In this document: one piece after another, positions 30,665-59,160 of the stretch | How the letters are laid out: each line of letters opens with the position of its first letter | Numbering within the stretch: the stretch's first letter is position 1 | Assembly: GCA_041661645.1 (NCBI GenBank) | Contig: JBAZUA010000003.1 | Span: 86,841-150,840 of the forward strand | Reading direction: 5' to 3' | Origin: Minisyncoccota bacterium | GTDB taxonomy: Bacteria; Patescibacteriota; Minisyncoccia; Phycocordibacterales; UBA6065 | DNA length: 64,000 nucleotides | Translations under genes and position numbers: made by a program | The notes under the pieces: generated by a model | Told to the model about the DNA's origin: nothing | Seen by the model: the letters and a program-made list of their open reading frames with translations, nothing else | Database searches by the model: none

Positions 30665-31444
30665 ATGGAATCACCTCGAATGGACACGGATAAGACGATG
30701 GGAGGCATAATGGTCTTCAGCCAGAATAACCATTTCGCCTATATCTATAAAAAGACCGAGAAGCTCGTCACGGCGGTCTATATGATTACTAATTTCATCA
30801 AGGACAACGAGCCTCTCAAGTGGCGCATTCGAGAGAAGTCTCTCGAGCTCCTCTCCCTTAACGTGTCTCTGAACACGGTGTCCCTCTCGGACAGGAAGGA
30901 CCTTCTCAAGAAGTATCGGGCGCGCTCGGTCGAGATTGTGTCCCTTTCGAGCATCGCCAATCATTCCGGCCTTATCTCAGAAATGAACTGCGATATCCTT
31001 AAAAGGGAATTCAACAATCTTGCTTCAACGATAGAGAAAGACGAAAACAAGAAGGCAAGCGAGGAGACCGTCATTCTGAGTCCGAGCTTTTTTGATACTC
31101 CTATCGCGTCTCAGCAGATCCAGGAACAGACCCAATTGGCCCCAAGGGTAGTTCCCGTGCCGTCTGCCCAAATCGCCCCCATCGCCGCGGCCCCTCAGAA
31201 TGTCCTTTATAAGAGACAGGGGGTCTCACAGGCTACGCCAAGGAAGGCTGAGTCAAAGAACGATCGTCAGGAGTCTATACTTAAGGTCCTTTCAACTCGG
31301 AACAAGCTTTCCGTAAAGGACTTTACCGATACCATCAAAGGCGTGAGCGAGAAAACTATCCAGCGCGAGCTTCTGTCGATGGTTTCCTCGGGTGTCCTTA
31401 AGAAAGAGGGGGAGAGGCGCTGGAGTACCTACTCTATTGCCTAG
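30665..31444 (+). CDS. hypothetical protein with predicted C-terminal winged-helix (HTH) DNA-binding domain
   Basis: C-terminus RQESILKVLSTRNKLSVKDFTDTIKGVSEKTIQRELLSMVSSGVLKKEG resembles a DeoR/HTH_11-type wHTH; Gln/Pro-rich linker; start uncertain. Confidence 0.4.
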   Translation: MESPRMDTDKTMGGIMVFSQNNHFAYIYKKTEKLVTAVYMITNFIKDNEPLKWRIREKSLELLSLNVSLNTVSLSDRKDLLKKYRARSVEIVSLSSIANHSGLISEMNCDILKREFNNLASTIEKDENKKASEETVILSPSFFDTPIASQQIQEQTQLAPRVVPVPSAQIAPIAAAPQNVLYKRQGVSQATPRKAESKNDRQESILKVLSTRNKLSVKDFTDTIKGVSEKTIQRELLSMVSSGVLKKEGERRWSTYSIA

Positions 31445-31946
31445 GGCTCAAGCCGCTTGCCTTTAGGGTCATTTTGGTGTAGTATTGATGGGTGGATAGC
31501 AGTTATCCACATTCCATTATTTGAGGCCATTTGCACGCAAATGCCTCAAATTATATACTTATGGGAAGTCCCTGTGAGTATTCCTTGGCCCTTGAAAACC
31601 GAATAGCGATTTCAATCACCGATAATCTGAATTTGATTCCGGACGGAATGCCGTATTTCCGAATAACCACTTCATCCTATCAACTATCCCCGAGCCTTGT
31701 GTCGATCTCTCGGGCGAATCAAAAGTTCGCTCGAGAGAAAAATGAGTATCGGGGAATAGTGGAGCGATGGACGTGACGAGTAATATCGTCACGGCCCATG
31801 CGCACACATTCCTTCTCGTTGCCGTCGAAGCGTGAGAGGGAGTGACGGCCGGCTTTAGCTTAGTCACACAGAAGTCTGATATTGCGGACAATTAAAAGTT
31901 ATCCCGCGGTCCAGGCTTCTTCATTACTTAAAGTACACACTTATAT

Positions 31947-33890
31947 ATGTCAACCAATAAAATCGTTGCGGCAGCAGTGGGATTCTCACTCGCCTTCGCA
32001 GCTTTCGTAGGAGTTGGAGCAGCATCGGCAGGCGCACAGTCTATGACTTTGAGCCAGCTCGTTGACCTCTTCATCTCTCTCGGAATCATCTCTTCTGACA
32101 AGGCAGCAGCAGCAAAGGCAGCTGTTACCTCTTCCGCAACCGTCGCAGCTACTACCTTCAGCAAGGATCTCACCATCGGTTCTACCGGTGCTGATGTTTC
32201 CGCTCTCCAGGCAGCAGTCGGCGTAACTCCTGCTACTGGCTACTTCGGTGCAATCACCAAGGCAGCTGTTCAGGCTTACCAGACTTCAAAGGGAATCAGC
32301 GCTACCGGTTACGTAGGACCACTCACCCGAGCGGCTCTCAACGGATCAGTAACGACTACGACCACGACCACCACTACGACCCCTTCGACCACCACGACCA
32401 CGACCGTAGTTAACTCTGGCGTAGAAGGAATTCTTACCGCAGACAAGGCTTCTATCTCTAACTCGACCGTTTACGAGGGAGACACGATGCACACTGTTCT
32501 CGGTATCAAGCTCCAGGCCCGACTCTCTGACATCAACGTACAGCGCGTTCGATTGAACCTCGGTGCAGATACTTCTATCTACACGAAGGCATTCAAGACG
32601 ATGTACCTCGTTGACGACGCAGGAAAGGTCATCGCTCAGGCAGACCTCAACTCAAACACTGTTGTAAAGGATAGCTCTGTCTATCTCCTTACCTTCGGTG
32701 GATTCAACTACGCAGTTGCAAAGGATACTACCAAGTACCTCTGGGTTAAGGCTGATGCTTACTCGTCGTTCAAGACCACTGGAAGCACGAACTGTGCTTC
32801 TACGGCCTCGACTTGTACCATCGCTCTCGCCGACAGCAACGGAGTTCGAGGAGTTGACGGAGCAGGTATTGATCAGAATGCTGGTGGAACCACCGGTTTC
32901 GCTCAGACCATTACCCTCCAGACCAGCCTCATCGAAAACGCTACCCTTGACCTTTCTGTCAGCCCATCAAACGTCAAGACTGGCGATGTAGTTGCTTCGG
33001 AAGGTGCAAACAATGACGAGCTTGATCAGATGTCAGTTCTCGTGTTTGACGTTCGCGCAAACAAGGACTCACTCGACATCACTGACCTCACTGCAAGCAT
33101 CACTTCGACCGCAGCTCTCGCTACCGCAACGACCGCTTACCTCTACGATGGTTCAACCCTCGTCCAGACTGAGTCGATCAACGGTACGACCGTAACCTTC
33201 TCTGACATCAGCAACCTCTCTGTCGCAAAGGACACCACTAAGTCCCTTACGCTCAAGATTGATGTTCGAAGCGCCGTCGCTACTCCTGATTCGTTCGCCG
33301 CATCTATCGCTGCAAGCGGTATAACTGCTGAGAACTCATTGGGTACTACTGTACGCAACACTTCAGCTATCACTGGTGAGAATCAGATTGTCCGAAACGC
33401 AGGTCCAGTATTCACTCTTAAGAGCATCGTCAACGGTACTCCTTCGAAGACTACTGACCAGAACGGTCAGGCAACTTCTACCTTGCCTGTAACCTTCAAC
33501 CTCAACATTGCTGCCAAGGGATCAGACATCACCTTCGGTGCAAACGGTGGGGTTTGGGCTCTCGCAACGACCGGTCAGGCTGTCTTCTACGAGAACAACG
33601 TACTTACCGCAACCTCAAGCATCATGGCTTCTGGCTCTAACGTATCTGTTCTCTACACGGCACCTTCGACTGGTGTAACTAACGGAACCGACGTCTTCAC
33701 TCTTGCAAAGGGTGCAAACATTGACCTTCCTGTTATCGTAAGCATCACGGTTGGAAAGGCTTCTGGATCTGCAGCATACTCTGTTGGATTCAGCGGATTC
33801 AACTGGGGTCTCTCTGGAGCGGCTACTACGACTTCTACCTTCATGTCTGGTAAGACTGAGTGGAGAAGCACGAACGTAACCCTTCCTTAG
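31947..33890 (+). CDS. secreted cell-surface protein: signal peptide, peptidoglycan-binding domain, poly-Thr linker, large beta-rich domain (S-layer-like candidate)
   Basis: Signal peptide (AFAAFVGVGAASAGAQS); PG_binding_1-like repeat (GADVSALQAAVGV..TGYFGAITKAAVQAYQ...GYVGPLTRAAL); TTTTTTTTTPSTTTTTT linker; codon usage differs from neighbours (more GCA/GCT/TCT); own terminator. Confidence 0.65.
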   Translation: MSTNKIVAAAVGFSLAFAAFVGVGAASAGAQSMTLSQLVDLFISLGIISSDKAAAAKAAVTSSATVAATTFSKDLTIGSTGADVSALQAAVGVTPATGYFGAITKAAVQAYQTSKGISATGYVGPLTRAALNGSVTTTTTTTTTTPSTTTTTTVVNSGVEGILTADKASISNSTVYEGDTMHTVLGIKLQARLSDINVQRVRLNLGADTSIYTKAFKTMYLVDDAGKVIAQADLNSNTVVKDSSVYLLTFGGFNYAVAKDTTKYLWVKADAYSSFKTTGSTNCASTASTCTIALADSNGVRGVDGAGIDQNAGGTTGFAQTITLQTSLIENATLDLSVSPSNVKTGDVVASEGANNDELDQMSVLVFDVRANKDSLDITDLTASITSTAALATATTAYLYDGSTLVQTESINGTTVTFSDISNLSVAKDTTKSLTLKIDVRSAVATPDSFAASIAASGITAENSLGTTVRNTSAITGENQIVRNAGPVFTLKSIVNGTPSKTTDQNGQATSTLPVTFNLNIAAKGSDITFGANGGVWALATTGQAVFYENNVLTATSSIMASGSNVSVLYTAPSTGVTNGTDVFTLAKGANIDLPVIVSITVGKASGSAAYSVGFSGFNWGLSGAATTTSTFMSGKTEWRSTNVTLP

Positions 33891-33941
33891 TAGGAAAGTT
33901 ACTGGACATAGCGCTGAATCGAAAGGTTTAGCCTAGTTCAA

Positions 33942-33976
33942 GCAAAAGCCGCACGAGCAATCGTGCGGCTTTTGCG
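33942..33976 (+). terminator. rho-independent terminator after the surface-protein gene
   Basis: CAAAAGCCGCACGAgcaaTCGTGCGGCTTTTGCG. Confidence 0.8.
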
Positions 33977-34042
33977 TTGGGAGAAAAGGAGATTGTTCTA
34001 TATAATAGGGCTATGAAAAAGGCATCGAACGAGGGCGGGTTC

Positions 34043-35005
34043 ATGAAGAAGATAGTCATAGTGACCGTGGCGGCCTGCATTGCATTTGTATTCCTATTCA
34101 AGTTTCTCCAGGATTTTCAGGCGACATCGTTCATCAACCTTTCCTCGGGCACGAATTATACGAGCCGATATCAGTCCGCGACGAACCCTTTGCTCGACTT
34201 TGGCAATTCCTCATATAGCCCATATTCGGACGATTCGAACAGGAGCGTGCCAAACTCTGATGGCAAGTTCACGTCGCCATATGCGGCGCAGGTAAGGTTG
34301 TCTTCTGGTAGCGCGAGCCAGGCTAATCAGACCTATGAGGAATACGTGACGCTCACCAACAGCGGCGCGCCCATCAACATTACGGGCTGGGTCATTGCAA
34401 ACGGCAAGGGGTCGAGGCCGATAGAGAATACTCAGATAAGCTATGCATATCCGGTAGCCGATTCTGCGACCATAGGGCAGGGGACCGAGTTCGTCTCCCC
34501 GGACGGCAAGTTTCAGGTTGGACCGATAGTTCTCAAGAGGGGCGACACGGCAATTCTTCAGACGGGAAGGCCCTTCTCGCAGTTTCCCTTTGCCCTCTAC
34601 ACGAGCTTCCGCGAGAACATGTGCATGGGCTATCTCGACAAATATCCTCTCGCGCCGCAGCTCAGCCTGTCATGCCCGTTCCCGACCAGCGACCCTTTCA
34701 TTCGAACGGTGACAGATCAGTGCTATGACTATCTCAACTCGCTTGCCCGCTGCCAGAGCCCGCAGGATGCGGTAAAGGGCCCGGAGAAGGATAGATATGA
34801 TCTTCTGACCTCCCAGTGCAAGTCTTTTGTCACCTCTCGCCTGAATTATCAGAGCTGCGTGGAGAATAATAGGGACGCCCAGGGCTTCTCGACCAATCAG
34901 TGGCGCGTGTTCCTCAACAGGGATCGCGAGCTTTGGGCAAGCTCCCGCGAGACCATCACCCTTTACGACGCTCAGGGATATGTGGTGGATAGGTTAACTT
35001 ACTGA
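34043..35005 (+). CDS. lamin-tail-domain (LTD) protein with N-terminal membrane anchor and C-terminal Cys-rich domain
   Basis: LTD motif EEYVTLTNSGAPINITGWVI; N-terminal TM; 8 Cys in the C-terminal 100 aa; alternative start at 34013. Confidence 0.65.
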   Translation: MKKIVIVTVAACIAFVFLFKFLQDFQATSFINLSSGTNYTSRYQSATNPLLDFGNSSYSPYSDDSNRSVPNSDGKFTSPYAAQVRLSSGSASQANQTYEEYVTLTNSGAPINITGWVIANGKGSRPIENTQISYAYPVADSATIGQGTEFVSPDGKFQVGPIVLKRGDTAILQTGRPFSQFPFALYTSFRENMCMGYLDKYPLAPQLSLSCPFPTSDPFIRTVTDQCYDYLNSLARCQSPQDAVKGPEKDRYDLLTSQCKSFVTSRLNYQSCVENNRDAQGFSTNQWRVFLNRDRELWASSRETITLYDAQGYVVDRLTY

Positions 35006-35046
35006 TTTCTTTAGGATTTCTTCGGCGGTCCTTCATGGCCTAATTG

Positions 35047-35076
35047 ATATTGTTTCTTCATATGAAGAAACAATAT
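35047..35076 (+). terminator. 30-bp perfect palindrome ATATTGTTTCTTCATATGAAGAAACAATAT plus T-tract, spanning the start codon of the next gene
   Basis: Perfect dyad centred on CATATG; the ATG at 35062 lies in the 3' arm; followed by TTTTTATTT. Confidence 0.55.
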
Positions 35077-36357
35077 TTTTATTTCACGATGATTGGAAGG
35101 AGGGTCTTTTGTCTGTCTGTCGCCATTCTGTCTGCCTTTGTCGCGCCAGTTGTTGCCTGCGCCCAGGTTATCATCACGGAGATAATGTACGATGTGCCCG
35201 GCCCGGATACGGGAAGGGAATGGATCGAGGTGAAAAATTCCGGTTCAGAGCCCGTAGATCTTTCAACGTGGAAACTGTTCGAGGCCAATACAAATCACAA
35301 GATAGTCGCCGTCGGAGCGGCGATCGTCGCACGGGGTTCCTTTGCCGTGATCGCTGATGTTCCTGAAAAGTTTATTGCCGATAATCCCGGTTTCTCCGGT
35401 CAGGTGTTCGATAGCACGTTCTCGCTTTCGGGCGACGGGGAGACGTTGGTCGTTCGTGATTCGTCCGGGGCCGATAGCGATTCGGTCTCGTATGACCCAT
35501 CGATCGGAGCCAAGGGAGACGGCCTTTCGTTGCAAAGGACATCCGATGGGAGGTGGATTGCCGCCAATCCTACCCTGGCCGCGCTGACCATCGCCACCCA
35601 GTCTGAGACAGTGAGGGTTCCTTCCAGTGAAACCGAAATATCCGCATCCGAGGCGCCTCCCTTGGCCGTGTCCGCCCCACAGGATTCTCAGGCAAATTCA
35701 GCCTATGCGAGCCAAGCCTTGGCGAACACGTCGGCAGATCAGTCTGACCTCGAGGTGACGTCTGGTCGGACGAGGCTCGGTTTCGTGGATACCGCGCTTG
35801 AGTTTCGGGCCAAGGTTCGAAAGGGAGGAAGTCCCACATCGACCATCGAGCATATTTGGTCCATGGGGGATGGGTCAATTTACCACGGGACGATCATAGA
35901 TCATGCCTACAGATTCGGCGGCCTTTATTCGGTCATTTTGAACAGTTCGACAAAACATTCTCAGGCCGTATCAAAGGTGTCCGTAAGGATTCTCGAACCG
36001 AGAATCTCCATTGTCGCCGTAACTGATCAGTATGTCGAGATACGAAACGATGATTCATCCGAGCTCAACCTGGGTGGCTGGTCAATCCAAACCGAGGTGA
36101 ATAGGTTTATCGTGGGCGACGATACGATAATGGCCCCTGGCATATCCGTGAAGTTTGCCTTTGCCGCGATTCCTCGGTTCGCCCCGCCCAAGGAATTCAT
36201 TCGCATCCTCAGCCCCTTCGGTCGCATCTTTGCCGAGTGGCACCCTGGCGTCGTGGCGGGGATAGCCCCGGATGGGGTGCTCATCGAATTGCCAGAGGGG
36301 ATGACGAGGGAATCACTCGAGACACTGTTTCGTAATGTTGTAAACAGCCATGAGTAA
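35062..36357 (+). CDS. tandem lamin-tail-domain (LTD) secreted protein
   Basis: LTD1 IITEIMYDVPGPDTGREWIEVKNSGSEPVDLSTWKL; LTD2 YVEIRNDDSSELNLGGWSI; N-terminal signal/anchor; Ser/Ala-rich linker. Confidence 0.7.
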   Translation: MKKQYFYFTMIGRRVFCLSVAILSAFVAPVVACAQVIITEIMYDVPGPDTGREWIEVKNSGSEPVDLSTWKLFEANTNHKIVAVGAAIVARGSFAVIADVPEKFIADNPGFSGQVFDSTFSLSGDGETLVVRDSSGADSDSVSYDPSIGAKGDGLSLQRTSDGRWIAANPTLAALTIATQSETVRVPSSETEISASEAPPLAVSAPQDSQANSAYASQALANTSADQSDLEVTSGRTRLGFVDTALEFRAKVRKGGSPTSTIEHIWSMGDGSIYHGTIIDHAYRFGGLYSVILNSSTKHSQAVSKVSVRILEPRISIVAVTDQYVEIRNDDSSELNLGGWSIQTEVNRFIVGDDTIMAPGISVKFAFAAIPRFAPPKEFIRILSPFGRIFAEWHPGVVAGIAPDGVLIELPEGMTRESLETLFRNVVNSHE

Positions 36358-39295
36358 AAGTGCACGCACCATAGCCTTCACCATCGTCTTTGCTGTTGGC
36401 GCATTTGGCTTTTTAAATGATGTTTTTGCGGATACCATCGTTACGGGTCAGTTAAATTCTGACACGACATGGACGAAGGAGGGAAGTCCCTACATCGTAG
36501 GGACATATCGGGTCAATAAGGGCGTCACCCTCACCATTGAGCCCGGTGTCACCGTTGGCTTCGGCACCGGGATGCCCTCCCTTGATGTATATGGAAGTCT
36601 TATTGCGCATGGCACTTCCGCCGAGCCAATAACCATCGCCTATACCTATCAACAGGCCTATATTCTTCAAATCCAAGTCTTCGGGGGAGTCATGGATTTG
36701 TCGTATCTCACAATCTCGGGTTTTGCCAGCCTGTCTGGACTAAACGGGGCGCATATCAGTTTTGATCATGTGAAATCGATTGATTTTCAGATATTCGTGT
36801 CCGCCTCCTCTCTCGTGATGAATGATTCGGTGTGTTTAAACACCGGACATCCTGTGACCATCCGTGTGGCCGTGAACAAGGGCGTGATCCCTACTGTGCT
36901 TATTCGAAATTCGGTTATCTTGGGAAAGAGATATTATGCCCTTTCTGCTGACTCTGGAGCTGCGGTTGATGTGAGAAATAACTTTTGGGGTGACGTATCT
37001 GGTCCCTACCACTCTGTCTTTAACAAGACTGGAAAGGGGGACCCTATCTCTGGCAATGTTGATTTCTCCCCATGGCTTTCCAGGGACCCTTTCGCATGCT
37101 GTTCAAGCGTCCTTTTCCTTCCGGGCTTCGAGGGCAGTCGGCTCTATGTGTCAGATGATCCATCGAGCACCAGTACCTCGTCCGGCGATAACAGGATTTG
37201 GGAGCCAAACCGCGATAAGGACATTGAATCGCTTGGCCTTACCCCTTCTGGCGCGAGTGCGAATAGGGTGTACTCAAAGATTGGGGATATCATCGACGAG
37301 GCGTATGTTTCTCTCGCGGGACCCAACATATACAAGTCATTTATGGCTGATATGAATGATCTCGTCGCCACGGGTACCGTAAAGAGTTGGCTCCCGGCCG
37401 CATACGATTGGAGGCTTTCTCTGGATCAGTTGCTTAATATGGGGAACGCGTCATCGAGCGGTTTGATTTCGTATCTTGATTCAACATCTACTCCGTATCT
37501 GGTCCAGGAGTTCTATAAGCTCGCCCGCGAGTCAAAGACCGGCAGGGTGAGCATCGTGGCCCATTCAAACGGCGGCCTTCTTGCCAAGGCTTTGGTGTCG
37601 TATGTCGAGAGTCGCGGGGATGCGGATCTCGTGGACAAGATACTGTTCGTGGCCGTGCCCCAGGTGGGAACCCCTCATGCGATCGGGGCGTTGCTGCATG
37701 GCTTCAAGGAGGGGATATGGCCCTTTACCTCGCCGCAGGCAATGCGTCGACTTGGTCAGAATATGCCGGGCGCATACAATCTTTTGCCGTCGCTTCGATA
37801 CGCTGACTTCGTCTCTAGCCCCATCATCAGTTTTTCGTCGGCCACATCATCGCCATTGCTTGTAGATATGCATGACGCGTATGGCGATGGCATCAGACTT
37901 TTTTCATCCCTCGTAGGTTTCTTGAAGGGCAGCGAGGGCAGGCGGGCGCCCACCTACGCTGACCTGTCTGCGCCCGAGATCCTCAGCCCGTCGCTTCTCG
38001 ATAGCGCGTCCACTACGCATGCGGTTCTTGATGCCTGGATTCCATCACCGAGCTCTGAACTGTTTGAGATCGCGGGCAGGGGCCTCGACACTGTTTCGGG
38101 AATTGAATATTACGAGGGAAGGAAGGGCAGGAAGAAGGCGCTTCTCTATAGGCCGATTTTTTCCTCTGATGGTGATGGCACCGTCATGCTCTCGAGCGCC
38201 TGGGCAACACCCTCGACCGAGAATGTCCATAGATACTGGGTTGACCTCAAGCTCGCGAGCGCGGGACTTAATCGCAATCGGGACCATTCGAACATTCTTG
38301 AGGTCGACGATTTGAGGGACTTCATAAAGGAGATACTTTCCGAGGCTCCCCATGCCATACGTCATCGGGCGCAGGTTGCCGATGCCTCAGTCGTGCCCAA
38401 GAAGCCATTTCAGAAAACCACTCGCGTTTTGCTGCATTCTCCCGATGCTTCTCTGGGCGTTAATGACAGCCAGGGGAGGCATACCGGAAGGTCATCATCT
38501 GGATTCGTCGAGACGCAGATTCCCGGCAGCCAGTATCAGGAGCTTGGCGATGTCACATATGTGAGCATCCCTGATTCCCCGTCATCGGATGGTCCCGCTC
38601 CCGTCATCCAGATAACGTCAGGTTCCACAACCTCCTCGATGTCTGATTCGGCCTTTTCGGTCGATGTCGAGCGGGCCACGGATGACGATGTTGCCACCTC
38701 GTCTACCTTTGAGGACGTGGTGGTTCCGCCCGGCGGTACCCTGACCATTGTGCCTATTTCAGATGCGTCTTCATCGACGGTCCCCGTCCTCCAGATAGAC
38801 GATAACGGTGATGGTACGGTCGATAGGGAGGTGTTGCCGGGCGCGCCTATTCCCGAACCTGTGTCCGCGTCAGAACCCGAACCAGGGGTGGAACTAGAAC
38901 ATGTGCCCGAATTTGGCGCCCGTCATCTGTCATCGAGTGGCGGAAGGTCTTCGGCCCGATCATCTGTGCGCGTCACTTTGCCGACCCCGTCTCCCTCATC
39001 GACTGAGTCGTTTTCAATAGCCACGACACAGGCCGCCTCTGCGACTGAGACTTTACCCATGATCGTTAATCACGCGTCGCTCAAAGACGCATCATTGGAA
39101 ATTGCCGACAAGGAGGTTCCTCCCGGGGCAGGGCATCGGTCGACCAACCTGGCGGCGGCATATATCAGCGTGGCCACGACAGCGACCTCGGCCGCGGCTT
39201 CGGGCCCGAGGGCGAGCCTTTCCCTCATCTCGGCTTTTCTCGTCGCCCTTGCCATCCTCTGGCTCTTGTCTTGCAAAATATCGAAATCCAGGTAA
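36350..39295 (+). CDS. large secreted protein: N-terminal right-handed beta-helix-like domain, LCAT-like (PF02450-type) phospholipase/acyltransferase alpha/beta-hydrolase domain, Ser/Pro-rich stalk and C-terminal membrane anchor
   Basis: Signal peptide; beta-helix-like repeats (GVTLTIEPGVTVGFG); LCAT-family hallmarks AAYDWRLS and nucleophile elbow VAHSNGG; C-terminal hydrophobic helix plus KISKSR; start ATG overlaps the upstream stop (ATGAGTAA). Confidence 0.6.
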   Translation: MSKSARTIAFTIVFAVGAFGFLNDVFADTIVTGQLNSDTTWTKEGSPYIVGTYRVNKGVTLTIEPGVTVGFGTGMPSLDVYGSLIAHGTSAEPITIAYTYQQAYILQIQVFGGVMDLSYLTISGFASLSGLNGAHISFDHVKSIDFQIFVSASSLVMNDSVCLNTGHPVTIRVAVNKGVIPTVLIRNSVILGKRYYALSADSGAAVDVRNNFWGDVSGPYHSVFNKTGKGDPISGNVDFSPWLSRDPFACCSSVLFLPGFEGSRLYVSDDPSSTSTSSGDNRIWEPNRDKDIESLGLTPSGASANRVYSKIGDIIDEAYVSLAGPNIYKSFMADMNDLVATGTVKSWLPAAYDWRLSLDQLLNMGNASSSGLISYLDSTSTPYLVQEFYKLARESKTGRVSIVAHSNGGLLAKALVSYVESRGDADLVDKILFVAVPQVGTPHAIGALLHGFKEGIWPFTSPQAMRRLGQNMPGAYNLLPSLRYADFVSSPIISFSSATSSPLLVDMHDAYGDGIRLFSSLVGFLKGSEGRRAPTYADLSAPEILSPSLLDSASTTHAVLDAWIPSPSSELFEIAGRGLDTVSGIEYYEGRKGRKKALLYRPIFSSDGDGTVMLSSAWATPSTENVHRYWVDLKLASAGLNRNRDHSNILEVDDLRDFIKEILSEAPHAIRHRAQVADASVVPKKPFQKTTRVLLHSPDASLGVNDSQGRHTGRSSSGFVETQIPGSQYQELGDVTYVSIPDSPSSDGPAPVIQITSGSTTSSMSDSAFSVDVERATDDDVATSSTFEDVVVPPGGTLTIVPISDASSSTVPVLQIDDNGDGTVDREVLPGAPIPEPVSASEPEPGVELEHVPEFGARHLSSSGGRSSARSSVRVTLPTPSPSSTESFSIATTQAASATETLPMIVNHASLKDASLEIADKEVPPGAGHRSTNLAAAYISVATTATSAAASGPRASLSLISAFLVALAILWLLSCKISKSR

Positions 39296-41992: not shown

Positions 41993-42885
41993 ATCTCTAT
42001 TCCGATTATGTTAAACCCTCAATCAAAAGCGGACTAGATAAGACCAGTTTCTGGCCTTGTTTAAGTACCGCTCAGACCGAGCGGTTTTTAATTTTCGGGA
42101 GGTGCTGTTATTTGAAATACGAACCCCGTCCCACTAGTCTTCCGCCCTCAAAAGCGGATGGTCTTTTCAAGAGTGGAGACGACTACATTCGTACGTTAGA
42201 TCGTGCGGATGTAAAACCTGCATCTTTCTCCCAGGAAGAGAGGATGCAGTGCAACAGGTAAAAATTAAATTGTATGAGTGTTCGTTGTAAGCGAACACTC
42301 TCATTGAGAATGAGTTTAAGTGGTTTTTAAATTTCCTAATAGGAAATTTAAGAGCATATGGTGGATGCCTTGGCTTCTGAGAAGCGATGAAGGACGTTGC
42401 GTAGCGACGATATGTTCGGGGAGCTGCCGAGCGAGCTTTGATCCGAACGTTTCCGAATGAGGAAACTCCATGTCGAGTGATCGACATGACCTTGGCCTTT
42501 ATGGTCAAGGAGCATACCCTGGGAAGTAAAACATTTCAGTACCAGGAGGAAGAGAAAACAATGTCCGCGTACTGCGGACGATATTTCCTTAGTAGTGGCG
42601 AGCGAAAGGGAAAGAGCCCAAACCTAGTCTTAATCGTGCGGTATGTCGCAAGACGTGCAGCGCGATTAAGACTGGGGGTTGTAAGATGATGATGTCACTA
42701 TTTATAGTGGAAAGAGTTACAAAATGTTTTGTTAGCAGAATTGGCTGGAAAGCCAGACCCTAGTGAGTGATAGTCTCGTATGCGAAAATAAAACATCTCT
42801 TTTATTGTCATTCTTGAGTACCCCAGGACACGAAAAGCTTGGGGGAATCTACCGGAACTAACCGGTAAGGCTAAATATTCCAGAA

Positions 42886-42918
<33 letters not shown>

Positions 42919-43505
42919 CGAAAAGAACCCCGGAGAGGGGAGTGAAATAGACCTGAAACCATATGCTTACAAGGAGTCGGAGCGGTAATTTATTACCGTC
43001 ACGGCGTGCCTATTGAAGAATGAGCCAACGAGTTAATGCATGCTGCAAGGCTAAGGGCTTGAATGCCCGGAGCCGCAGGGAAACCGAGTGTGAATAGCGC
43101 GACTCAGTAGTATGTATTAGACCCGAAGCCGGGTGAGCTTGCCATGTGCAGGTTGAAGTTTGTCGAAAGACAGATGGAGGACCGAACGCTAGAGACGTGC
43201 AATACTCTGCGATGACATGTGGTATGGAGTGATAAGCTCATCGAACTCGGTAATAGCTGGTTCTCTCCGAAATATGTTTAGGCATAGCGTCGTATGTTCC
43301 CACGAGGGGTAGAGCACTGGAAGATTCTGACAGGTAGAAATACCGCAGAACCTATCAAACTCCGAATACTCGTGGTTAAAAGTACGGCAGTAAGACCGTG
43401 GGGGCTAAGCTCCACAGGTCAAAAGGGAAACAGCCCGCATCTCAATTTAAGGTCCCAAAATTCATGCTAAGTACAAGTGAGGTGGTGAATCTTCTCTGAC
43501 GGTGA

Positions 43506-43537
<32 letters not shown>

Positions 43538-44389
43538 GAAAGCGTAACAGCTCACTCACTTAGAGGGTTTGCGCCGCAGATGATCGGGGTTAAAGCATGA
43601 TACCGAAACTGAGGATTGCATCCATATTCGTATGGGTGCACTGGTAGGAGAGTATTCTACTCTGCGATGAAGGCAAAGGGGTGACCCATGCTGGAGCGTG
43701 TAGAAGTAAGAATGTTGGCACAAGTAACCACAATGCGGATGAGAAATCCGCACGCCGGAAGATTAAGGTTTCCTTCGCAATGGATTTCAGCGAAGGGTTA
43801 GTCGGGCCTAAGGGGATGGTGAAAACCGTACCTGATGGACACATGGTTAATATTCCATGACTGGCGTTTGGTGCGATGGGAGGACGGAGCACAGTATGTG
43901 TAGCCCCTTATTGGATTGGGGTTGTTGGTCTCAGGGCGATATGCGAGGAAAATCCCGCATTCTGCATTTATTTGCGAGCCTAAGGACAGACGGGAAGGCT
44001 GGGTTCGCCCAGCGGAACTACACAGAGCGAGCTTTCAAGAAAATTCTCTAAGCATAACCAAACGCTATCCGTACCGAAAACCGAAACAGGTGATCGGCTC
44101 GAGGAGAGCAAGGCGAACGAGTGAAGGTCCTTCAAGGAACTCGGCAAAAAATCAGCCGTAAGTTAGCGATAAGGCTTGCCCTCTCTTTATTGAGGGGGCC
44201 GCAGCGAAAGTATGCCTGGCGACTGTTTATCAAAAACACAGCTCCCTGCGAACTCGTAAGAGGATGTATAGGGGGTGACACTTGACCAATGCCAGAAGGT
44301 CAACCAGCGGCGTTGCCACGTATTTATACGTGGTGGTGACTGCTGTAAGCCCTGGTGAATGTCGGCGGTAACTATAACCGTCCTAAGGT

Positions 44390-44606
44390 TCTGCATCTTT
44401 CGCAAGAAGGGTGCAGAAGGACTGGGACGGTCATAGCAGTGTTAGATGAACAAGAACCTAATAGAAGTTACACAAATAGCTACCTGACATCGCAGTAATG
44501 CATTGTCAGTCCACACATGATCAACAAGAGACCAACGTCATGGATCCGAACTCGTCAATTCGTTGATGGGAGGATTAAGATAGAGTCCGACTTAGAGGAA
44601 TAGTTG
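44390..44606 (+). ncRNA. putative group I intron (217 nt) in 23S, between E. coli-equivalent U1931 and A1932 (CCUAAGGU | AGCGAAAUUCC)
   Basis: Exon sequence is contiguous with E. coli once 44390-44606 is removed; 5' exon ends in U, insert ends in G; internal AAGATAGAGTCCGAC resembles the group I J8/7-P7 3' strand. Confidence 0.5.
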
Positions 44607-45267
44607 AGCGCAATTCCTTGTCAGGTAAGTTCTGACGCGTTGAATAGTGTAACGTCTGGGCAACTGTCTCGAAGGACAGCTCGGTGAAAATACAATCCCG
44701 GTGAAGATGCCGGGTACCTGCAGTTAGACGAAAAGACCCTAGAAGCTTTACTATAGCTTGATATTGAGTATACGATTCTGATGCGTAGCATAGACGTGAG
44801 GATTTGAAGTGCGCTTTCGGGTAGCATGGATCCGCCAGTGAAATAGCGTTCTTCAGTGTTGTATATTCTAACCCCGAGGGCAAAAACCGCGGGAGACAGT
44901 ATCTGGTGGGTAGTTTTAGTGGGGCGCTATCCTCCTAAAAAGTAACGGAGGAGCCTATTAAGGTCAGTTAGCCGTGAATGGAAACCATGGCGATAGTGTA
45001 TGGGCATAAACTGGCTTAACTGTAAGACGTACATGTCGAGCAGATGCGAAAGCAGAGCTAAGTGAACCGACGGATCGCGTTAGATGCGGCCGGAGATTAT
45101 CGGACAAAAGCTACCCTAGGGATAACAGGCTCGTTCCGCCTAAGAGTTCATATCGACGGCGGAGTTCGGCACCTCGATGTCGGCTCATCTTATCCTGGGG
45201 CTGGAGAAGGTCCCAAGGGTTTGGCTGTTCGCCAATTAAAAAGGTACGTGAGCTGGGTTCAGACCGT

Positions 45268-45556
45268 TCAGAAGGTGATTGCGCATAGTCGCGCGATCAT
45301 GCACTGGACAGTCTGAATCCCTCGGACATCATGAGGAAAAAAGAGACAACAACCAATCACGGCGCCCGCAACGAGCAATCATTGCGGAGCCAGTTAACTA
45401 ATATCGGTGAAGCCCGACAGGCGCAAGCTTGGGGTAATACCGAGGGAAGCAGAGTCATATCTGCACCCGTAGAGACTACACGTTAACCTCCACATCGAAA
45501 TAATGAGATGTGGATGAAGATATAGTCCAATGCACAGAGTAATTTGTGAAAACATG
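45268..45556 (+). ncRNA. putative group I intron (289 nt) in 23S at the E. coli-equivalent L2593 site (GAACGU | CGUGAGACAG)
   Basis: Exons rejoin to GAGCTGGGTTCAGACCGT/CGTGAGACAGGTTGGTC; 5' exon ends in U, intron ends in G; contains GTAGAGACTACACG (P7 5'-like GACUA) and GAAGATATAGTCC, which matches the Tetrahymena J8/7-P7 element AAGAUAUAGUC. Confidence 0.6.
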
Positions 45557-45956
45557 CGTGAGACAGGTTGGTCTCCTATCTACTGCAGGCGTTGATTCTT
45601 GAGGAGTTTTGCTTCTAGTACGAGAGGACCGAAGTGAACGGACCGCTGGTCTGCCTGCTGTCACGCCCGTGGCAACGCAGGGTAGCTATGTCCGGAACGG
45701 ATAACCACTGAAAGCATCTAAGTGGGAAGCCGCCTCCAAGATAAGGAATCGTTTGAGGGCCCTAGGAGACTACTAGGTTGATAGGCTTTAGGTGTACACG
45801 CAGCAATGCGTTGAGCCGAGAAGTACTAATTACCCGATCTTATTAGGAAATTTATGAATCACTCATGGCGAGGGCCATGATTACTGATTCTTGATGATTT
45901 AATTATATTTGTTGCAAGTTCGTATTCCTGAAAACAGCACGATTGAATTCTGTGTT

Positions 45957-46062
45957 CTGGTGATTTAACGCGGTGGCACCACCTCTTCCCATCCCGAACA
46001 GAGAAGTTAAACGCCGTAGTGCCGATGATAGTCCTTATGGGCGAAAGTAGGTAGTCGCCAGT
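45957..46062 (+). rRNA. rrf: 5S ribosomal RNA
   Basis: GCGGTGGCACCACCTCTTCCCATCCCGAACAGAGAAGTTAAACGCCGTAGTGCCGATGATAGT...GTAGGTAGTCGCCAG; flanking processing stem GATTGAATTCTGTG / CACAGAATTCAATC. Confidence 0.85.
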
Positions 46063-46081
46063 ACACAGAATTCAATCAAAG

Positions 46082-57190: not shown

Positions 57191-57218
57191 TTGACCCCTT
57201 TAAAGCCCTGTGTATAAT
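57191..57218 (+). promoter_or_regulatory. candidate 16S rRNA promoter (TTGACC-16-TGTATAAT, extended -10)
   Basis: Hexamers plus TG; spacer motif shared with the 23S promoter. Confidence 0.5.
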
Positions 57219-57532
57219 GGTTGTTACCCCTCAAGTAGAGGGGGAAAAAGTTTTCGGTCTTTGAAATAATTATTGTTATTAAATATTTGAGAACGTGCAG
57301 TAGAAAACTGGTTATAAAGTTTCTACGCATTGTGCAAGTTAATTCAATTGAGAAGTTGGTTGTCGCAATTCGATGCAGATTCAGCATTCGATGCGACGTT
57401 AAACATATATAGGATTGTGGAGACCCCGGTAGCACGGGGAATCCCAGAACAAAGTAGTGAGCACTCATACTGTGATCTATTTTGTTCCGTTCGTCTTTCA
57501 GTGCACTCTTTCGGGAGTTTGCTGAAAGATTT

Positions 57533-59023
57533 AAAACAAGAGTTTGATCCTAGCTCAGGATGAACGCTGGCGGCGTGGATAAGGCATGCAAGTCAAGGGG
57601 GCCGCAAGGCAACCGGCGAACGAGGTAGTAATAAGTAGGTACGAACCTTCAAGTCAAGCATAGCTCGTCGAAAGACGGGGTAATTCTTGATAGTCCCTTC
57701 GGGGTAAAGATTTATCGCTTGAAGATCGGCCTGCTCGGTATCAGCTAGTTGGTGAGGTAAAAGCTCACCAAGGCAATGACGCCTAGGGGACCTGAGAGGG
57801 TGACCCCCACCGATGGAACTGAGACACGGTCCATACACCTACGGGTGGCCGCAGTCGAGAATCTTCCGCAATGGACGAAAGTCTGACGGAGCGACGCCGC
57901 GTGCAGGATGAAGTCCTTCGGGATGTAAACTGCTTTTATAGGGGAGGAAGTTTATTGACGTTACCCTAAGAATAAGAGGTTGCTAAACTCGTGCCAGCAG
58001 CAGCGGTAATACGAGTGCCTCAAGCGTTATCCGGAATCATTGGGCGTAAAGGGTTTGTAGGTGGTCATGTTAGTCTTTCGTTAAATTTCCCGGCTTAACC
58101 GGGAACATGCGGAGGAAACGGCATGACTTGAGGATGCAAGGGGTCTGCGGAACTCATAGTGTAGCGGTGAAATGCGTTGATATTATGGGGAACACCAAAA
58201 GCGAAGGCAGCAGACTGGGGCACTCCTGACACTGAAAAACGAAAGCGTGGGTAGCGAATGGGATTAGATACCCCAGTAGTCCACGCCCTAAACGATCTTC
58301 TCTAGCTATTTGGAGTATCGACCCTCTGAGTGGCGTAGCTAACGCGTTAAGAGAAGCGCCTGGGTAGTACGACCGCAAGGTTAAAACTCAAAGGAATAGA
58401 CGGGGACTTGCACAAGCGGAGGATCATGTGGTTTAATTCGATGGTAAACGAAGAACCTTACCAGGGTTGGAAATCTAGTTGAAGCCGAGCAGAAACGTTC
58501 GGCGCCGCAAGGCAATTAGACAGGTGCTGCATGGTCGTCGTCAGTTCGTGATTTGAATTGTTCCCTTCAGTGGGGTAACGAACGCAACCCTCATTGCCTG
58601 TTACAAGTGTCAGGCGAGACTGCCCAGCTTTTTGGTCACAATCGAAAGATTGCGCACAAGAAGCTGGGAGGAAGGTGAGGATGACGCCAGATCAGCATGG
58701 CCCTTTGATACCCTGGGCTACACACGTGATACAATGGCACTTACAACGCGAAGCGACGGGGAAACCCTGAGCAAATCGTTTAAAGAGTGCCCTAGTTCGG
58801 ATAGGAGTCTGCAACTCGACTCCTTGAAGCTGGATTCGCTAGTAATCTCGGGTCAGCTATACCGAGGTGAATACGTTCTCAAGTCTTGTACTCACCGCCC
58901 GTCAACTCAAGGGAGTTGGGAGTGCCCGAAGTCCGCGCTTGTCGCGGCCTAAGGCAAGCTCAATGACAGGGAGTAAGTCGTAACAAGGCACGGGTAGCGG
59001 AAGCTGCTCGTGGATTATTTCAA
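57533..59023 (+). rRNA. rrs: 16S ribosomal RNA (about 1.49 kb, no intron), 3' tail lacking the CCUCC anti-Shine-Dalgarno
   Basis: 5' AGAGTTTGATCCTAGCTCAGGATGAACGCTGGCGGCG; GTGCCAGCAGCAGCGGTAATAC (515 site variant); 3' GTCGTAACAAGGCACGGGTAGCGGAAGCTGCTCGTGGATTATTTCA. Confidence 0.9.
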
Positions 59024-59160
59024 GTGAAAACCGCTTTCCACTCTGTGGAGAGCTTACGGAGTCGATCATATTTATATGGGTTTTTCAGATACCTACAACT
59101 GAATGGACGTCAGGGAAGAACTGGCAAACAGAACGGAGCAAAGTAGAGGATAGTATGAAG

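Follow-up and report, generated by a model that had tools for sequence, protein, structure and literature searches.

A candidate major surface protein gene of Paceibacteria behind tandem predicted promoters, a DnaA-box-like 9-mer, and a structured leader RNA

What the cell envelope of CPR/Patescibacteria consists of and how it is built have been described as unresolved (PMC5220378), and S-layers have been reported in some species only (PMC13293708). The 64,000-nt stretch of Minisyncoccota DNA analyzed here (hereafter the window) belongs to a Paceibacteria (Patescibacteria/CPR) genome, that of an ultra-small bacterium not in culture, and contains a forward-strand gene at 31947-33890 that carries unusual codons and follows a long non-coding interval. 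A first-pass annotation had proposed a candidate S-layer or major surface protein with a structured 5' UTR of about 500 nt. Sequence comparison and predicted structure indicate that the gene most likely encodes the dominant cell-surface protein of its lineage.

The coding sequence specifies 647 aa, whose organization was derived from the ORF list, Pfam, AlphaFold2, and Foldseek. A signal-peptide-like N-terminus (approximately aa 1-31) with a conserved A-x-A-Q motif is followed by short helices (aa 35-61), a PG_binding_1 module (approximately aa 70-133; nt 32154-32345), the poly-Thr linker TTTTTTTTTPSTTTTTT (aa 135-153), and about four Ig-like beta-sandwich domains (aa 157-647; nt 32415-33887), the C-terminus being a conserved ...FMxGKxEWRTxxVSLP. 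The order of signal peptide, peptidoglycan-binding domain, poly-Thr linker, and beta-rich domain given by the first-pass annotation is thus borne out. Pfam places PG_binding_1 (PF01471) at aa 92-131 (E 2.9e-10; 40.6 bits against a cutoff of 23), a PDB sequence search finds relatives of this module, and structure prediction of the C-terminal part by AlphaFold2 yields Ig-like beta-sandwiches over aa 160-647 at a pLDDT of about 90 (78.7 on average for the protein). PG_binding_1 is the only part matched in Pfam, NCBIfam, and the PDB sequence search, the other 490 aa beyond it consisting of these beta-sandwiches. Homologs bear the JGI name peptidoglycan hydrolase, a function rejected here because no catalytic amidase, peptidase, or glycosidase domain was found in Pfam, NCBIfam, or the PDB. 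The protein is also unlike its top Foldseek neighbors, sortase-anchored Gram-positive adhesins, as it has neither an LPXTG motif nor a C-terminal transmembrane segment.

Gram-positive S-layer proteins such as SbsB and SbsC of Geobacillus pair a module that binds the cell wall with a subsequent array of Ig-like domains. The surface protein resembles them in its secretion, in its non-covalent attachment to the wall through the N-terminus, and in a linker that leads to several Ig-like beta-sandwich domains; like them, it is acidic, of about 63 kDa, rich in Thr, Ser, and Ala, and almost free of Cys. Its composition (62.8 kDa, pI 4.88, Thr 16%, Ala 12.5%, Ser 11%, Cys 0.3%, Met 1%) lies within the range used to recognize S-layer proteins, namely 40-200 kDa, an acidic pI, few Cys and Met residues, and abundant hydroxy and hydrophobic residues. 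Unlike SbsB and SbsC, it is anchored by PG_binding_1 rather than SLH or CWB2, showed no sequence or specific fold similarity to them in the searches, belongs to a family limited to one CPR lineage, and is a putative lattice former only. Searches of Pfam, NCBIfam, PDB sequences, and Foldseek matched no S-layer family or anchor (SLH, CWB2, RsaA, and others), and Foldseek against the PDB returned only generic Ig-array matches with low TM-scores, which are also compatible with adhesins. Hence the proposal of an S-layer or major surface protein stands insofar as the secreted wall-binding architecture and the composition fit it, whereas a relationship to a known S-layer protein was not found; that the protein forms a lattice is suggested by analogy.

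A search for homologs gave 429 full-length matches of 620-690 aa under the names Paceibacterota, Taylorbacteria, or Parcubacteria, while the C-terminal module retrieved only 316 representative matches among 1.84 billion proteins, with nearly always identical architecture. Gene order is conserved as well, running from a helix-turn-helix (HTH) gene through a long gap to the surface gene and then an LTD gene. Transcript data for comparable proteins come from three cultured-enrichment Paceibacteria, where secreted proteins with peptidoglycan-binding domains rank within the top five secreted-protein genes by expression, one reaching 16.7 as against 12.0-12.2 for ribosomal proteins S11 and S13 in what appear to be log-scaled normalized RPKM values (PMC10936435). 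These proteins, from Ca. Yanofskyibacterium and Minisyncoccaceae, were interpreted by their authors as host-attachment enzymes; like the surface protein, they come from Paceibacteria and carry both a signal peptide and a peptidoglycan-binding domain along with Ig-like folds, and one of them has about 690 aa. The one traceable example has its best UniRef match in Microgenomates at 29% identity, and may therefore represent only an analogous family.

That interpretation leads to a different function, in which the surface protein, though highly expressed, serves as an adhesin for attachment to a host instead of building an S-layer lattice, its PG_binding domain engaging the wall of the host or of the cell itself and its Ig-like array mediating adhesion. 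We consider this rather improbable. The structural neighbors found by Foldseek are indeed Ig-array adhesins (AgI/II, SdrG, UafA, CfaE) and integrin legs, similar peptidoglycan-binding-domain proteins have been read as attachment factors (PMC10936435), and many contigs break at the surface gene, as would suit a variable surface antigen. Yet the gene is single-copy in the window and conserved over its full length across the lineage, the protein lacks not only LPXTG but also, in the Pfam search, any lectin or other ligand-binding domain, and its codon bias, which exceeds that of ribosomal protein genes, points to the abundance of a structural protein. The hosts of the cultured Paceibacteria are moreover archaea, which, to our knowledge, have no murein.

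The codon usage of the surface gene is the most extreme in the window. The annotated contrast with its neighbors, a richness in GCA, GCT, and TCT, is reproduced by the counts (GCA/GCT 0.51/0.38 versus 0.15/0.08; TCT 0.38 versus 0.14), and GC3 is 0.53 as against approximately 0.70-0.78 in neighboring genes. Such values might reflect recent horizontal acquisition from a donor of lower GC content rather than expression level, a view favored by the reduced GC3. The shift, however, runs in opposite directions in the two codon classes, with T/A-ending codons rising to 0.70 in four-fold families (about 0.24 elsewhere) and C-ending codons reaching 0.83 in two-fold families, and it parallels the bias of ribosomal protein genes, the codon log-ratios of ribosomal protein genes and of the surface gene against background correlating in the same direction (r=0.65, p=2e-8). 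The first-pass annotation had pointed to the codon adaptation index (CAI) against ribosomal protein genes as a yardstick. By itself, when referred to the five ribosomal genes of the window, plain CAI leaves the surface gene short of first place; only the directional codon log-ratio test used in its place puts it on top, where, under the ribosomal-protein codon model, it outscores all 34 non-ribosomal genes. Conversely, the codon model of the surface gene ranks ribosomal genes at the top (Mann-Whitney p=1.2e-5). In orthologs from about 55 genomes of 31-55% GC, two-fold C and four-fold T/A usage both exceed those of the flanking genes, the higher C usage appearing even in AT-rich genomes, and this recurrence favors translational selection over horizontal transfer. 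Together with the conserved synteny around the gene, these observations effectively refute horizontal acquisition, to which we give hardly any credence, and support the view that the codon bias has the character of translational selection acting on a gene with very high expression.

Upstream of the coding sequence, two tandem sigma-70-like promoters are predicted. P1 (31457-31485) consists of a -35 element TTGCCT (31457-31462), a 17-nt spacer, and a -10 element TAGTAT (31480-31485), and its hexamers and spacing are conserved in alignment A2 and in 75 loci. P2 (31530-31559), picked up by a promoter scan and with a predicted TSS near 31566, has a weak -35 element TTTGCA (31530-31535), an 18-nt spacer, and a near-consensus -10 element TATACT (31554-31559) that is invariant in alignment A2, with a geometry conserved in 75 loci. 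The predicted 5' UTR accordingly measures about 380 nt if transcription starts at P2 and about 455 nt if it starts at P1, somewhat less than the annotated 500 nt. Between the promoters lies an invariant 9-mer, TTATCCACA (31503-31511, forward strand), which equals the DnaA-box consensus exactly and is phased to P2. Of 78 distinct loci, 72 have it without mismatch and four more with one. It lies 6-11 nt ahead of the P2 -35 element in 68 of 75 loci and one helical turn further away, at 18-20 nt, in the other 7, which include the window.

The three dyads noticed in the first-pass annotation all exist and are more stable than shuffled sequences (z -3.5, -4.9, and -3.8), but dyads 1 and 2 fall in the promoter region and only dyad 3 lies inside the P2 leader. 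Dyad 1, TGGATAgcagtTATCCA (31493-31509; z -3.45 against shuffles), has as its left arm a degenerate inverted copy of the 9-mer, whose spacing ranges from 5 to 60 nt in relatives. Dyad 2, ATTTGAGGC...GCCTCAAAT (31519-31551), overlaps the P2 -35 element and spacer and represents an insertion of about 10 nt that is specific to one lineage, occurring in the window and in loci L011 and L049 but nowhere else; in relatives a hairpin often occurs between P1 and the 9-mer. The DnaA-box-like conserved site inside one of these promoter dyads had not been recognized at first reading.

Copies of the 9-mer beyond the promoter in 419 kb of loci are orientation-specific, 13 forward versus 4 reverse against a rough expectation of about 1.6 per strand, and of the 11 forward copies inspected most precede ORFs of secreted proteins and one precedes the regulator gene discussed below. 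A one-mismatch copy near 57209 was considered as a second regulated promoter and discarded, as P2-like geometry is not evident there. The locus is likewise not an oriC, since the window holds just two perfect 9-mers, equal to chance expectation, and no GC-skew inflection. DnaA boxes also occur in promoters, those of E. coli dnaA and nrdAB and of B. subtilis sda among them. The perfect high-affinity consensus at the surface gene resembles these in adjoining a promoter in a specific orientation; it differs in being one 9-mer at a fixed position of about -49 next to a weak -35 element, and in having envelope and secreted-protein genes as putative targets. The literature searches returned no report of a DnaA box at an S-layer gene or of TTATCCACA in Patescibacteria, and neither the window nor any of the loci yielded a dnaA gene. 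TTATCCACA is inferred to be bound by an activator. DnaA in the role of a transcription factor is the most likely candidate, and the winged-helix protein of the gene just upstream is the other possible binder.

The upstream gene (30665-31444, forward strand) encodes a protein in which a four-helix bundle resembling Avd and the '23S rRNA IVS protein' is joined through a disordered linker to a C-terminal winged HTH that is invariant; this protein is a candidate regulator. The family comprises 1691 matches, and its alignment (A7) contains an invariant SxKTIQRELL...GERRWSxY motif; Foldseek with the AlphaFold2 model matches 2gsc, 2rld, and 8ub7_E (TMt approximately 0.8) as well as ArsR/BlaI-type winged HTH domains. 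TTATCCACA might accordingly be the operator of this dedicated envelope-cluster regulator rather than a DnaA site, a possibility that we hold tentatively and regard as short of probable; by extension, the GUCGA loops of the leader described below might be a further target of the protein or of its Avd-like bundle. The gene precedes the surface gene at nearly all loci and is missing from both loci in which no 9-mer occurs; its recognition helix SxKT(I/V)QREL shows the same invariance as the 9-mer, the 9-mer recurs inside the same gene cluster, and Avd-type bundles bind RNA (8ub7 match). Weighing against these points, an unrelated operator would match the DnaA consensus exactly by chance in only about 1 in 65,000 to 1 in 262,000 cases, and the site is a single asymmetric 9-mer, whereas winged HTH regulators usually bind repeats. 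DnaA boxes tolerate the degeneracy TT(A/T)TNCACA, to which TTATCCACA conforms and within which TTTTCCACA, one of its one-mismatch variants, also falls, and the 9-mer stands ahead of the regulator's own gene at one locus only.

The annotated structure of the 5' UTR is well founded. The predicted P2 leader (31566-31949) folds at -133.9 kcal/mol (z -5.45) and is modular, since both module A and hairpin Hb are optional. Module A (31566-31682) contains the conserved blocks CUUGAAAACCGAAUAGCGAU and UUCCGGACGG, gave no consensus structure, and is dispensable, being deleted in L016, L059, and L089. Module B (31683-31946) is a structured RNA composed of domain I, which has a GUCGA internal loop (31701-31705), and of three hairpins, namely Hb, which is optional, Hc, whose loop is GUCGAA (GTCGA at 31824-31828), and, beyond a linker, the long Hd (approximately 31871-31919); a GGAAUAGU block lies at about 31750, and dyad 3, CGTGACGAgtaataTCGTCACG (31772-31793), forms the tip of Hb. 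Independent MFE folds of module B agree, and RNAalifold gives 78 pairs. The covariance model R1, built from five close sequences followed by realignment, scores the window at 83.9 bits (E 7e-20), and all 35 of its matches lie in leaders upstream of the surface gene. In the R1 alignment, which is fitted to the model structure so that pairing is inflated, pairing holds in 91.9% of cells, and 74 of the 78 pairs have changed on both sides, including 10 of 10 in the dyad 3 helix (helix 6); compensatory cells number 620, whereas shuffles give 175 and slid controls 91-135. From 23 leaders aligned plainly with MAFFT, RNAalifold recovers only 9 pairs because the variable hairpins are misaligned. GTCGA is enriched 8-fold and strand-specifically in 75 of 80 leaders, and between 31350 and 32050 no Rfam 15 family reached its gathering score, matches being at chance level (E up to 10). 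The comparative evidence supports a selected RNA structure, and the combination of conserved GUCGA loops, heavy covariation, and modularity suggests specific recognition rather than generic end protection.

Could the region instead be an independent non-coding RNA gene, or a small or decayed protein gene, rather than a 5' UTR? Mechanical ORFs of 49, 81, and 91 aa do exist in 31445-31946, the interval between P1 and the 9-mer often holds a hairpin in relatives, and several short contigs begin inside the leader. These ORFs, however, are conserved in neither position, frame, nor strand among relatives, one of which has no ORF of at least 30 aa in its 500 nt upstream, so that the interval is effectively ORF-free, as annotated; the small protein or decayed gene that the annotation had itself raised as a counter-explanation is rejected for lack of a conserved ORF. 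No terminator separates the structured region from the ATG, R1 matches always abut the start codon of the surface gene, and leader and coding sequence are continuous on short, mRNA-like single-gene contigs. The absence of an Rfam family likewise speaks against a separate RNA gene, and the whole alternative appears very unlikely.

The leader ends in an unstructured, A/C/U-rich initiation region (31920-31946), in which CAUUACUAGAAGUACACAC is conserved in the close clade and no Shine-Dalgarno (SD) sequence occurs. The missing SD is explained by a 16S rRNA without an anti-SD sequence and is therefore genome-wide rather than a peculiarity of the surface gene; the literature search found nothing relevant on anti-SD sequences in Patescibacteria. 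Beyond the stop codon, a 3'-UTR hairpin with a GAAA tetraloop (33903-33940), homologous in relatives, precedes an intrinsic terminator (33942-33975) whose 15-bp stem, AAAAGCCGCACGA-GCAA-UCGUGCGGCUUUU, has equivalents in relatives and matches the strong terminator of the first-pass annotation. The two together reach -46 kcal/mol (z -7.6), and many short single-gene contigs end at the hairpin; a simple scan missed the terminator.

Classical S-layer genes (Lactobacillus slpA, Aeromonas vapA, Thermus slpA) combine multiple promoters, a long, structured, stabilizing 5' UTR, biased codons, and a strong terminator. In the surface gene, too, two promoters are predicted in tandem, the leader is long and folded, the codon bias is extreme, and the terminator is strong; it differs from slpA and vapA genes in having no SD and a much longer leader (about 380 nt) that is multi-helix, modular, heavily covarying, and furnished with GUCGA loops. 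An integrated mechanism can be envisaged in which the protein would be exported by Sec and held to the wall by its N-terminal PG_binding_1, while the poly-Thr stalk, probably glycosylated, would project about four Ig-like domains outward. Its expression would be raised in four layers: transcription from the tandem promoters, with TTATCCACA ahead of P2 at a fixed helical phase (approximately -53 to -45); a leader of about 380 nt whose last 265 nt form the conserved, covarying multi-helix structure with sequence-conserved GUCGA loops, and which may stabilize the mRNA and dock a specific factor while leaving the A/C-rich start region unpaired for SD-independent initiation; extreme codon usage that comparison suggests is translationally selected; and a 3' hairpin and strong terminator that would protect the 3' end. 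This explanation as a whole, a dominant wall-anchored, S-layer-like protein expressed at a very high level by these means, we regard as fairly probable.

A broader extension is possible, though on present evidence unlikely. Paceibacteria cells have very few transcription factors, and across the class DnaA might directly activate the dominant envelope gene and neighboring secreted-protein genes through one perfect box phased to a weak -35 element, tying coat synthesis to replication or growth state, while an undescribed leader of approximately 260-400 nt, its GUCGA loops read by the syntenic Avd-like/winged-helix protein or another factor, would control stability or translation in a lineage that no longer uses Shine-Dalgarno pairing.

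The locus offers a handle at each level. The protein, a lineage-wide, single-copy, candidate peptidoglycan-anchored major surface protein, lends itself to antibodies, cryo-ET fitting, and metaproteomics; the sharply defined 9-mer, identical to a DnaA box, would delimit an envelope regulon; and the leader, a new and strongly covarying RNA, can now be recognized with a covariance model. In addition, the locus displays the organization of very high expression in an organism whose 16S rRNA is without an anti-Shine-Dalgarno sequence, and its control region could make the cell envelope of CPR/Patescibacteria testable.

The gene at 31947-33890 on the forward strand encodes a protein of 647 aa, in which a Pfam scan recognized PG_binding_1 alone (E 2.9e-10), and for which a PDB profile search found relatives for residues about 70-140 only, namely the binding modules of L,D-transpeptidases, DD-carboxypeptidases, and endolysins. 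In 26 aligned homologs, a conserved signal peptide with A-x-A-Q at its end leads into a short helical segment and the binding domain; a linker rich in Thr, which differs in length between homologs, then connects to a well-conserved C-terminal part of 490 aa that ends in ...EWRTxxVSLP. According to the AlphaFold2 model (mean pLDDT 78.7, rising to about 90 in the C-terminal part), there are about four beta-sandwich domains. The composition described in the first-pass annotation (signal peptide, peptidoglycan-binding domain, poly-Thr linker, and beta-rich domain) is borne out. Foldseek searches with this model retrieved generic tandem Ig-like arrays only, including integrin legs and adhesins of Gram-positive bacteria, at low TM-scores. 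The mature protein (62.8 kDa, pI 4.9) contains 16% Thr, 12.5% Ala, 11% Ser, and 0.3% Cys. Among 1.84 billion proteins, only 316 representatives matched the C-terminal module (E up to 1e-3), nearly all with one architecture of 600-700 aa; the family is thus lineage-restricted, and no source offers a name for it beyond 'peptidoglycan-binding'. The protein shares the modular logic of S-layer proteins, although its anchor differs from theirs.

The product is 100% identical to an NCBI 'peptidoglycan-binding domain-containing protein [Candidatus Paceibacterota bacterium]', and its relatives were found in Taylorbacteria, Zambryskibacteria, Nomurabacteria, and Parcubacteria MAGs, which together place the source organism within Paceibacteria (Patescibacteria/CPR). 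The window has a GC content of 54%, and its rRNA genes are unlinked: 23S and 5S rRNA (42334-46063) lie about 11 kb upstream of 16S rRNA (57532-59025), which is followed by tRNA-Ile (region to 59774). The 23S gene (42334-45850) carries several insertions, as evident from its length of 3517 nt versus 2925 nt for the model. The surface gene belongs to a cell-envelope gene cluster, with a gene order kept family-wide: a same-strand gene of about 250-290 aa, a gap of 200-900 nt, the surface gene, and usually a gene for an LTD-domain protein. Downstream in the window (33977-39295) lie genes for secreted proteins that contain Lamin-tail (LTD) and PKD domains, as well as for a 981-aa secreted protein. 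One Nomurabacteria contig holds two paralogs of the surface gene (L056 and L057), the second of which lacks both the upstream HTH gene and the 9-mer TTATCCACA considered below. MAG contigs often stop inside or beside the surface gene (14 loci), suggesting strain-level variability or a coverage anomaly.

Codon usage unlike that of the neighbors, as the first-pass annotation had claimed, is evident from a GC3 of 0.53 versus about 0.72. Two-fold pyrimidine codons favor C (TTC 0.95, TAC 0.93, AAC 0.89), and four-fold codons favor T/A (GCA+GCT 0.89, GGT+GGA 0.87, GTT+GTA 0.74); the deviation is therefore not compositional. Both trends recur more weakly in the ribosomal genes of the window (L11, L10, L7/L12, S18, S6), SSB, and EF-P, and over 59 codons the log-ratios of ribosomal and of surface-gene usage to background are correlated (r=0.65, p=2e-8). 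Under a ribosomal-versus-background model, the surface gene scores +0.148 per codon, while none of the 34 other genes exceeds 0.001; in the reverse test, with a model trained on the surface gene, ribosomal genes rank highest (Mann-Whitney p=1.2e-5). A plain codon adaptation index against the small ribosomal reference set, the check originally proposed, does not place the gene first, because it overshoots the ribosomal preferences. Horizontal transfer, which could also leave a foreign codon bias, is excluded by the two-way deviation, by the ribosomal parallel, and by about 55 orthologous loci (genomes of 31-55% GC) whose orthologs deviate from their flanks in both directions. The pattern is instead best read as the signature of translational selection on a gene that would be exceptionally highly expressed. 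In three Paceibacteria, secreted proteins with a peptidoglycan-binding domain, similar to this one by description, rank in the top five of secreted-protein genes by expression; one such gene (2079 nt, with signal peptide) scores 16.7 and 15.9, where ribosomal proteins S11 and S13 reach 12.0-12.2, on an apparently log-scaled normalized RPKM scale (PMC10936435).

The region upstream of the gene, initially described as free of ORFs, is non-coding: its mechanical ORFs (49, 81, and 91 aa) vary in frame, strand, and position among relatives, no conserved ORF exists, one relative has no ORF of at least 30 aa within its upstream 500 nt, and an Rfam search of the region gave no match even at E up to 10. 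Alignment of 14 upstream regions and a survey of 75 distinct loci point to two sigma-70-like promoters with predicted start sites, P1 (31457-31485, TTGCCT-17-TAGTAT), immediately behind the stop codon of the preceding gene, and P2 (31530-31559, TTTGCA-18-TATACT), which in these loci combines a near-consensus -10 element (TATAAT or TAAAAT) with a weak -35 element (TTGCGC, TTGCAA, or TAGGTG). The two promoters flank TTATCCACA (31503-31511), whose sequence is the high-affinity consensus for a DnaA box. A perfect copy of this 9-mer is present in 72 of the 78 distinct loci with enough upstream sequence, and a copy with one mismatch in four further loci (TTTTCCACA twice, TTATCCCCA twice), despite protein identities down to 35-45% and a GC spread of 24 points. 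Its distance to P1 ranges from 3 to 68 nt across the 75 loci, whereas its gap to the P2 -35 element is 6-11 nt in 68 of them (mode 9) and 18-20 nt, or one helical turn more, in the other seven, including the window. Such near-fixed spacing argues that the 9-mer is functionally part of P2, at about -53 to -45, where an activator site or UP element would lie. All three dyads noted in the first pass are present and more stable than shuffled sequence: dyad 1 (31493-31509) is the 9-mer plus a degenerate inverted copy, and dyad 2 (31519-31551), which overlaps the -35 element and spacer of P2, is the insertion that accounts for the additional helical turn.

Elsewhere in 419 kb of loci, the 9-mer occurs 13 times in gene orientation and four times in reverse, where a rough estimate predicts about 1.6 per strand. 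Eleven of the extra forward copies were inspected, and most of them precede, by 50-230 nt, ORFs with signal-peptide-like N-termini; the exceptions are one before the upstream regulator gene, one before an ORF without obvious signal peptide, and one without a downstream ORF. The forward copies upstream of ORFs come from ten loci and suggest a small envelope regulon. A literature search returned no report of such a motif. A replication origin was rejected, since the two perfect copies in the window are at chance level and do not form a cluster, and the GC skew shows no inflection.

DnaA acting as a transcription factor is the favored candidate for binding the 9-mer, given the perfect agreement with the universal DnaA consensus, which would be very unlikely in an unrelated operator, the single, asymmetric, orientation-specific site, and the variant TTTTCCACA, which falls within known DnaA-box degeneracy. 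The rival candidate is the syntenic upstream protein (30665-31444), which couples an N-terminal four-helix bundle resembling Avd/'23S rRNA IVS protein' with a C-terminal winged helix whose recognition helix, SxKT(I/V)QREL, is invariant; its conservation exceeds that of the surface protein, and the two loci without the 9-mer also lack this HTH gene. The family of the upstream protein has 1691 members, all from Patescibacteria and apparently confined to that group, and is annotated only as hypothetical.

From P2, the predicted 5' UTR is 380 nt long in the window (family range 122 to 493 nt, median 354), with a fold of -133.9 kcal/mol (z -5.45). Its first part, module A (31566-31682), has conserved blocks, yielded no consensus fold, and is deleted in some relatives. 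The last approximately 265 nt (31683-31946) adopt one architecture in independent MFE folds of 23 homologous leaders, with differing stem sequences: domain I, closed by ACUAUC.../...GAAUAGU and containing a GUCGA internal loop and a variable hairpin; an optional hairpin Hb, whose tip is dyad 3 (31772-31793); hairpin Hc with a GUCGAA loop; a GAUUAUU linker; the long hairpin Hd with a large UUAnnAGU loop; and an unpaired CAUUACUAGAAGUACACAC...AUG start region. RNAalifold assigned 78 pairs to five close sequences, and a covariance model built from these gave 35 matches in 651 kb, every one in a leader upstream of a surface gene; full-length matches run as far as the start codon, and the four that are truncated on the 5' side stop where their contigs do. 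For the window, the model score is 83.9 bits (E 7e-20). In the alignment, which was itself fitted to the model, pairing cells amount to 91.9% versus 64% in shuffled and 40-49% in slid-partner controls, 74 of the 78 pairs show both-side changes, and compensatory cells number 620 versus 175 (shuffled) and 91-135 (slid), still a large margin over the slid controls. The leader is a new, strongly covarying RNA that could act as a stabilizer or a sensor. Family-wide, 75 of 80 distinct leaders contain GTCGA, and its strand-specific enrichment (5.5 per kb versus 0.67 per kb elsewhere) indicates an RNA-level recognition motif. In MFE folds, the block GAAUAGUC can pair with upstream ACUAUC or downstream GAUUAUUC, and these mutually exclusive helices may form a riboswitch-like switch. 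In the window, GAAUAGU(C) lies at 31745-31752 and ACUAUC at 31683-31688, the alternative partner in many homologs being GAUUAUUC, at the GAUUAUU linker.

The 16S 3' end (59012-59025) has GGAUUAUUUCAAGU in place of GGAUCACCUCCUUA, with a tail GGATTATTTCAAGT instead of GGATCACCTCCTTA, and thus lacks the anti-Shine-Dalgarno CCUCC; a Shine-Dalgarno sequence was absent in 35 of 35 genes checked, whose upstream regions are A/C-rich. Together these features imply that initiation is SD-independent across the genome, and the unpaired A/C-rich region before the surface gene's start codon is therefore the normal initiation context of the organism, kept single-stranded by the leader.

At the 3' end, the gene's own strong terminator, already claimed in the first pass, has a 15-bp stem (33942-33975) and follows a GAAA-loop hairpin (33903-33940), the 3' UTR fold reaching z -7.6. 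This GNRA-tetraloop hairpin between stop codon and terminator is conserved at equivalent positions in loci L074-L105. About 25 of the best 80 metagenomic loci are contigs of 1.9-2.35 kb holding the surface gene only, with 90-500 nt of leader and just 1-57 nt past the stop codon; several begin at the GGAAUAGU block, and none reaches the terminator or neighboring genes. These contigs look like assembled mRNAs, and since many end at or just after the GNRA hairpin, it may mark a processed or protected 3' end. Independent short contigs (L075, L084, and L002, with 5' ends at model positions 61-76, and L093-L105) begin about 10-30 nt from a conserved GGAAUAGUCGAG or GGAUAGUAGU block situated about 190-230 nt before the ATG, which may reflect an mRNA processing site or an assembly artefact.

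The proposal of an S-layer or major surface protein is therefore partly supported: the product carries every computational hallmark of the major cell-surface protein of Paceibacteria, and would presumably be abundant and perhaps lattice-forming. Its predicted expression region exceeds the classical S-layer pattern, adding to it an invariant DnaA-box-like putative activator site in phase with a weak promoter, and a leader RNA that is new and covaries strongly.
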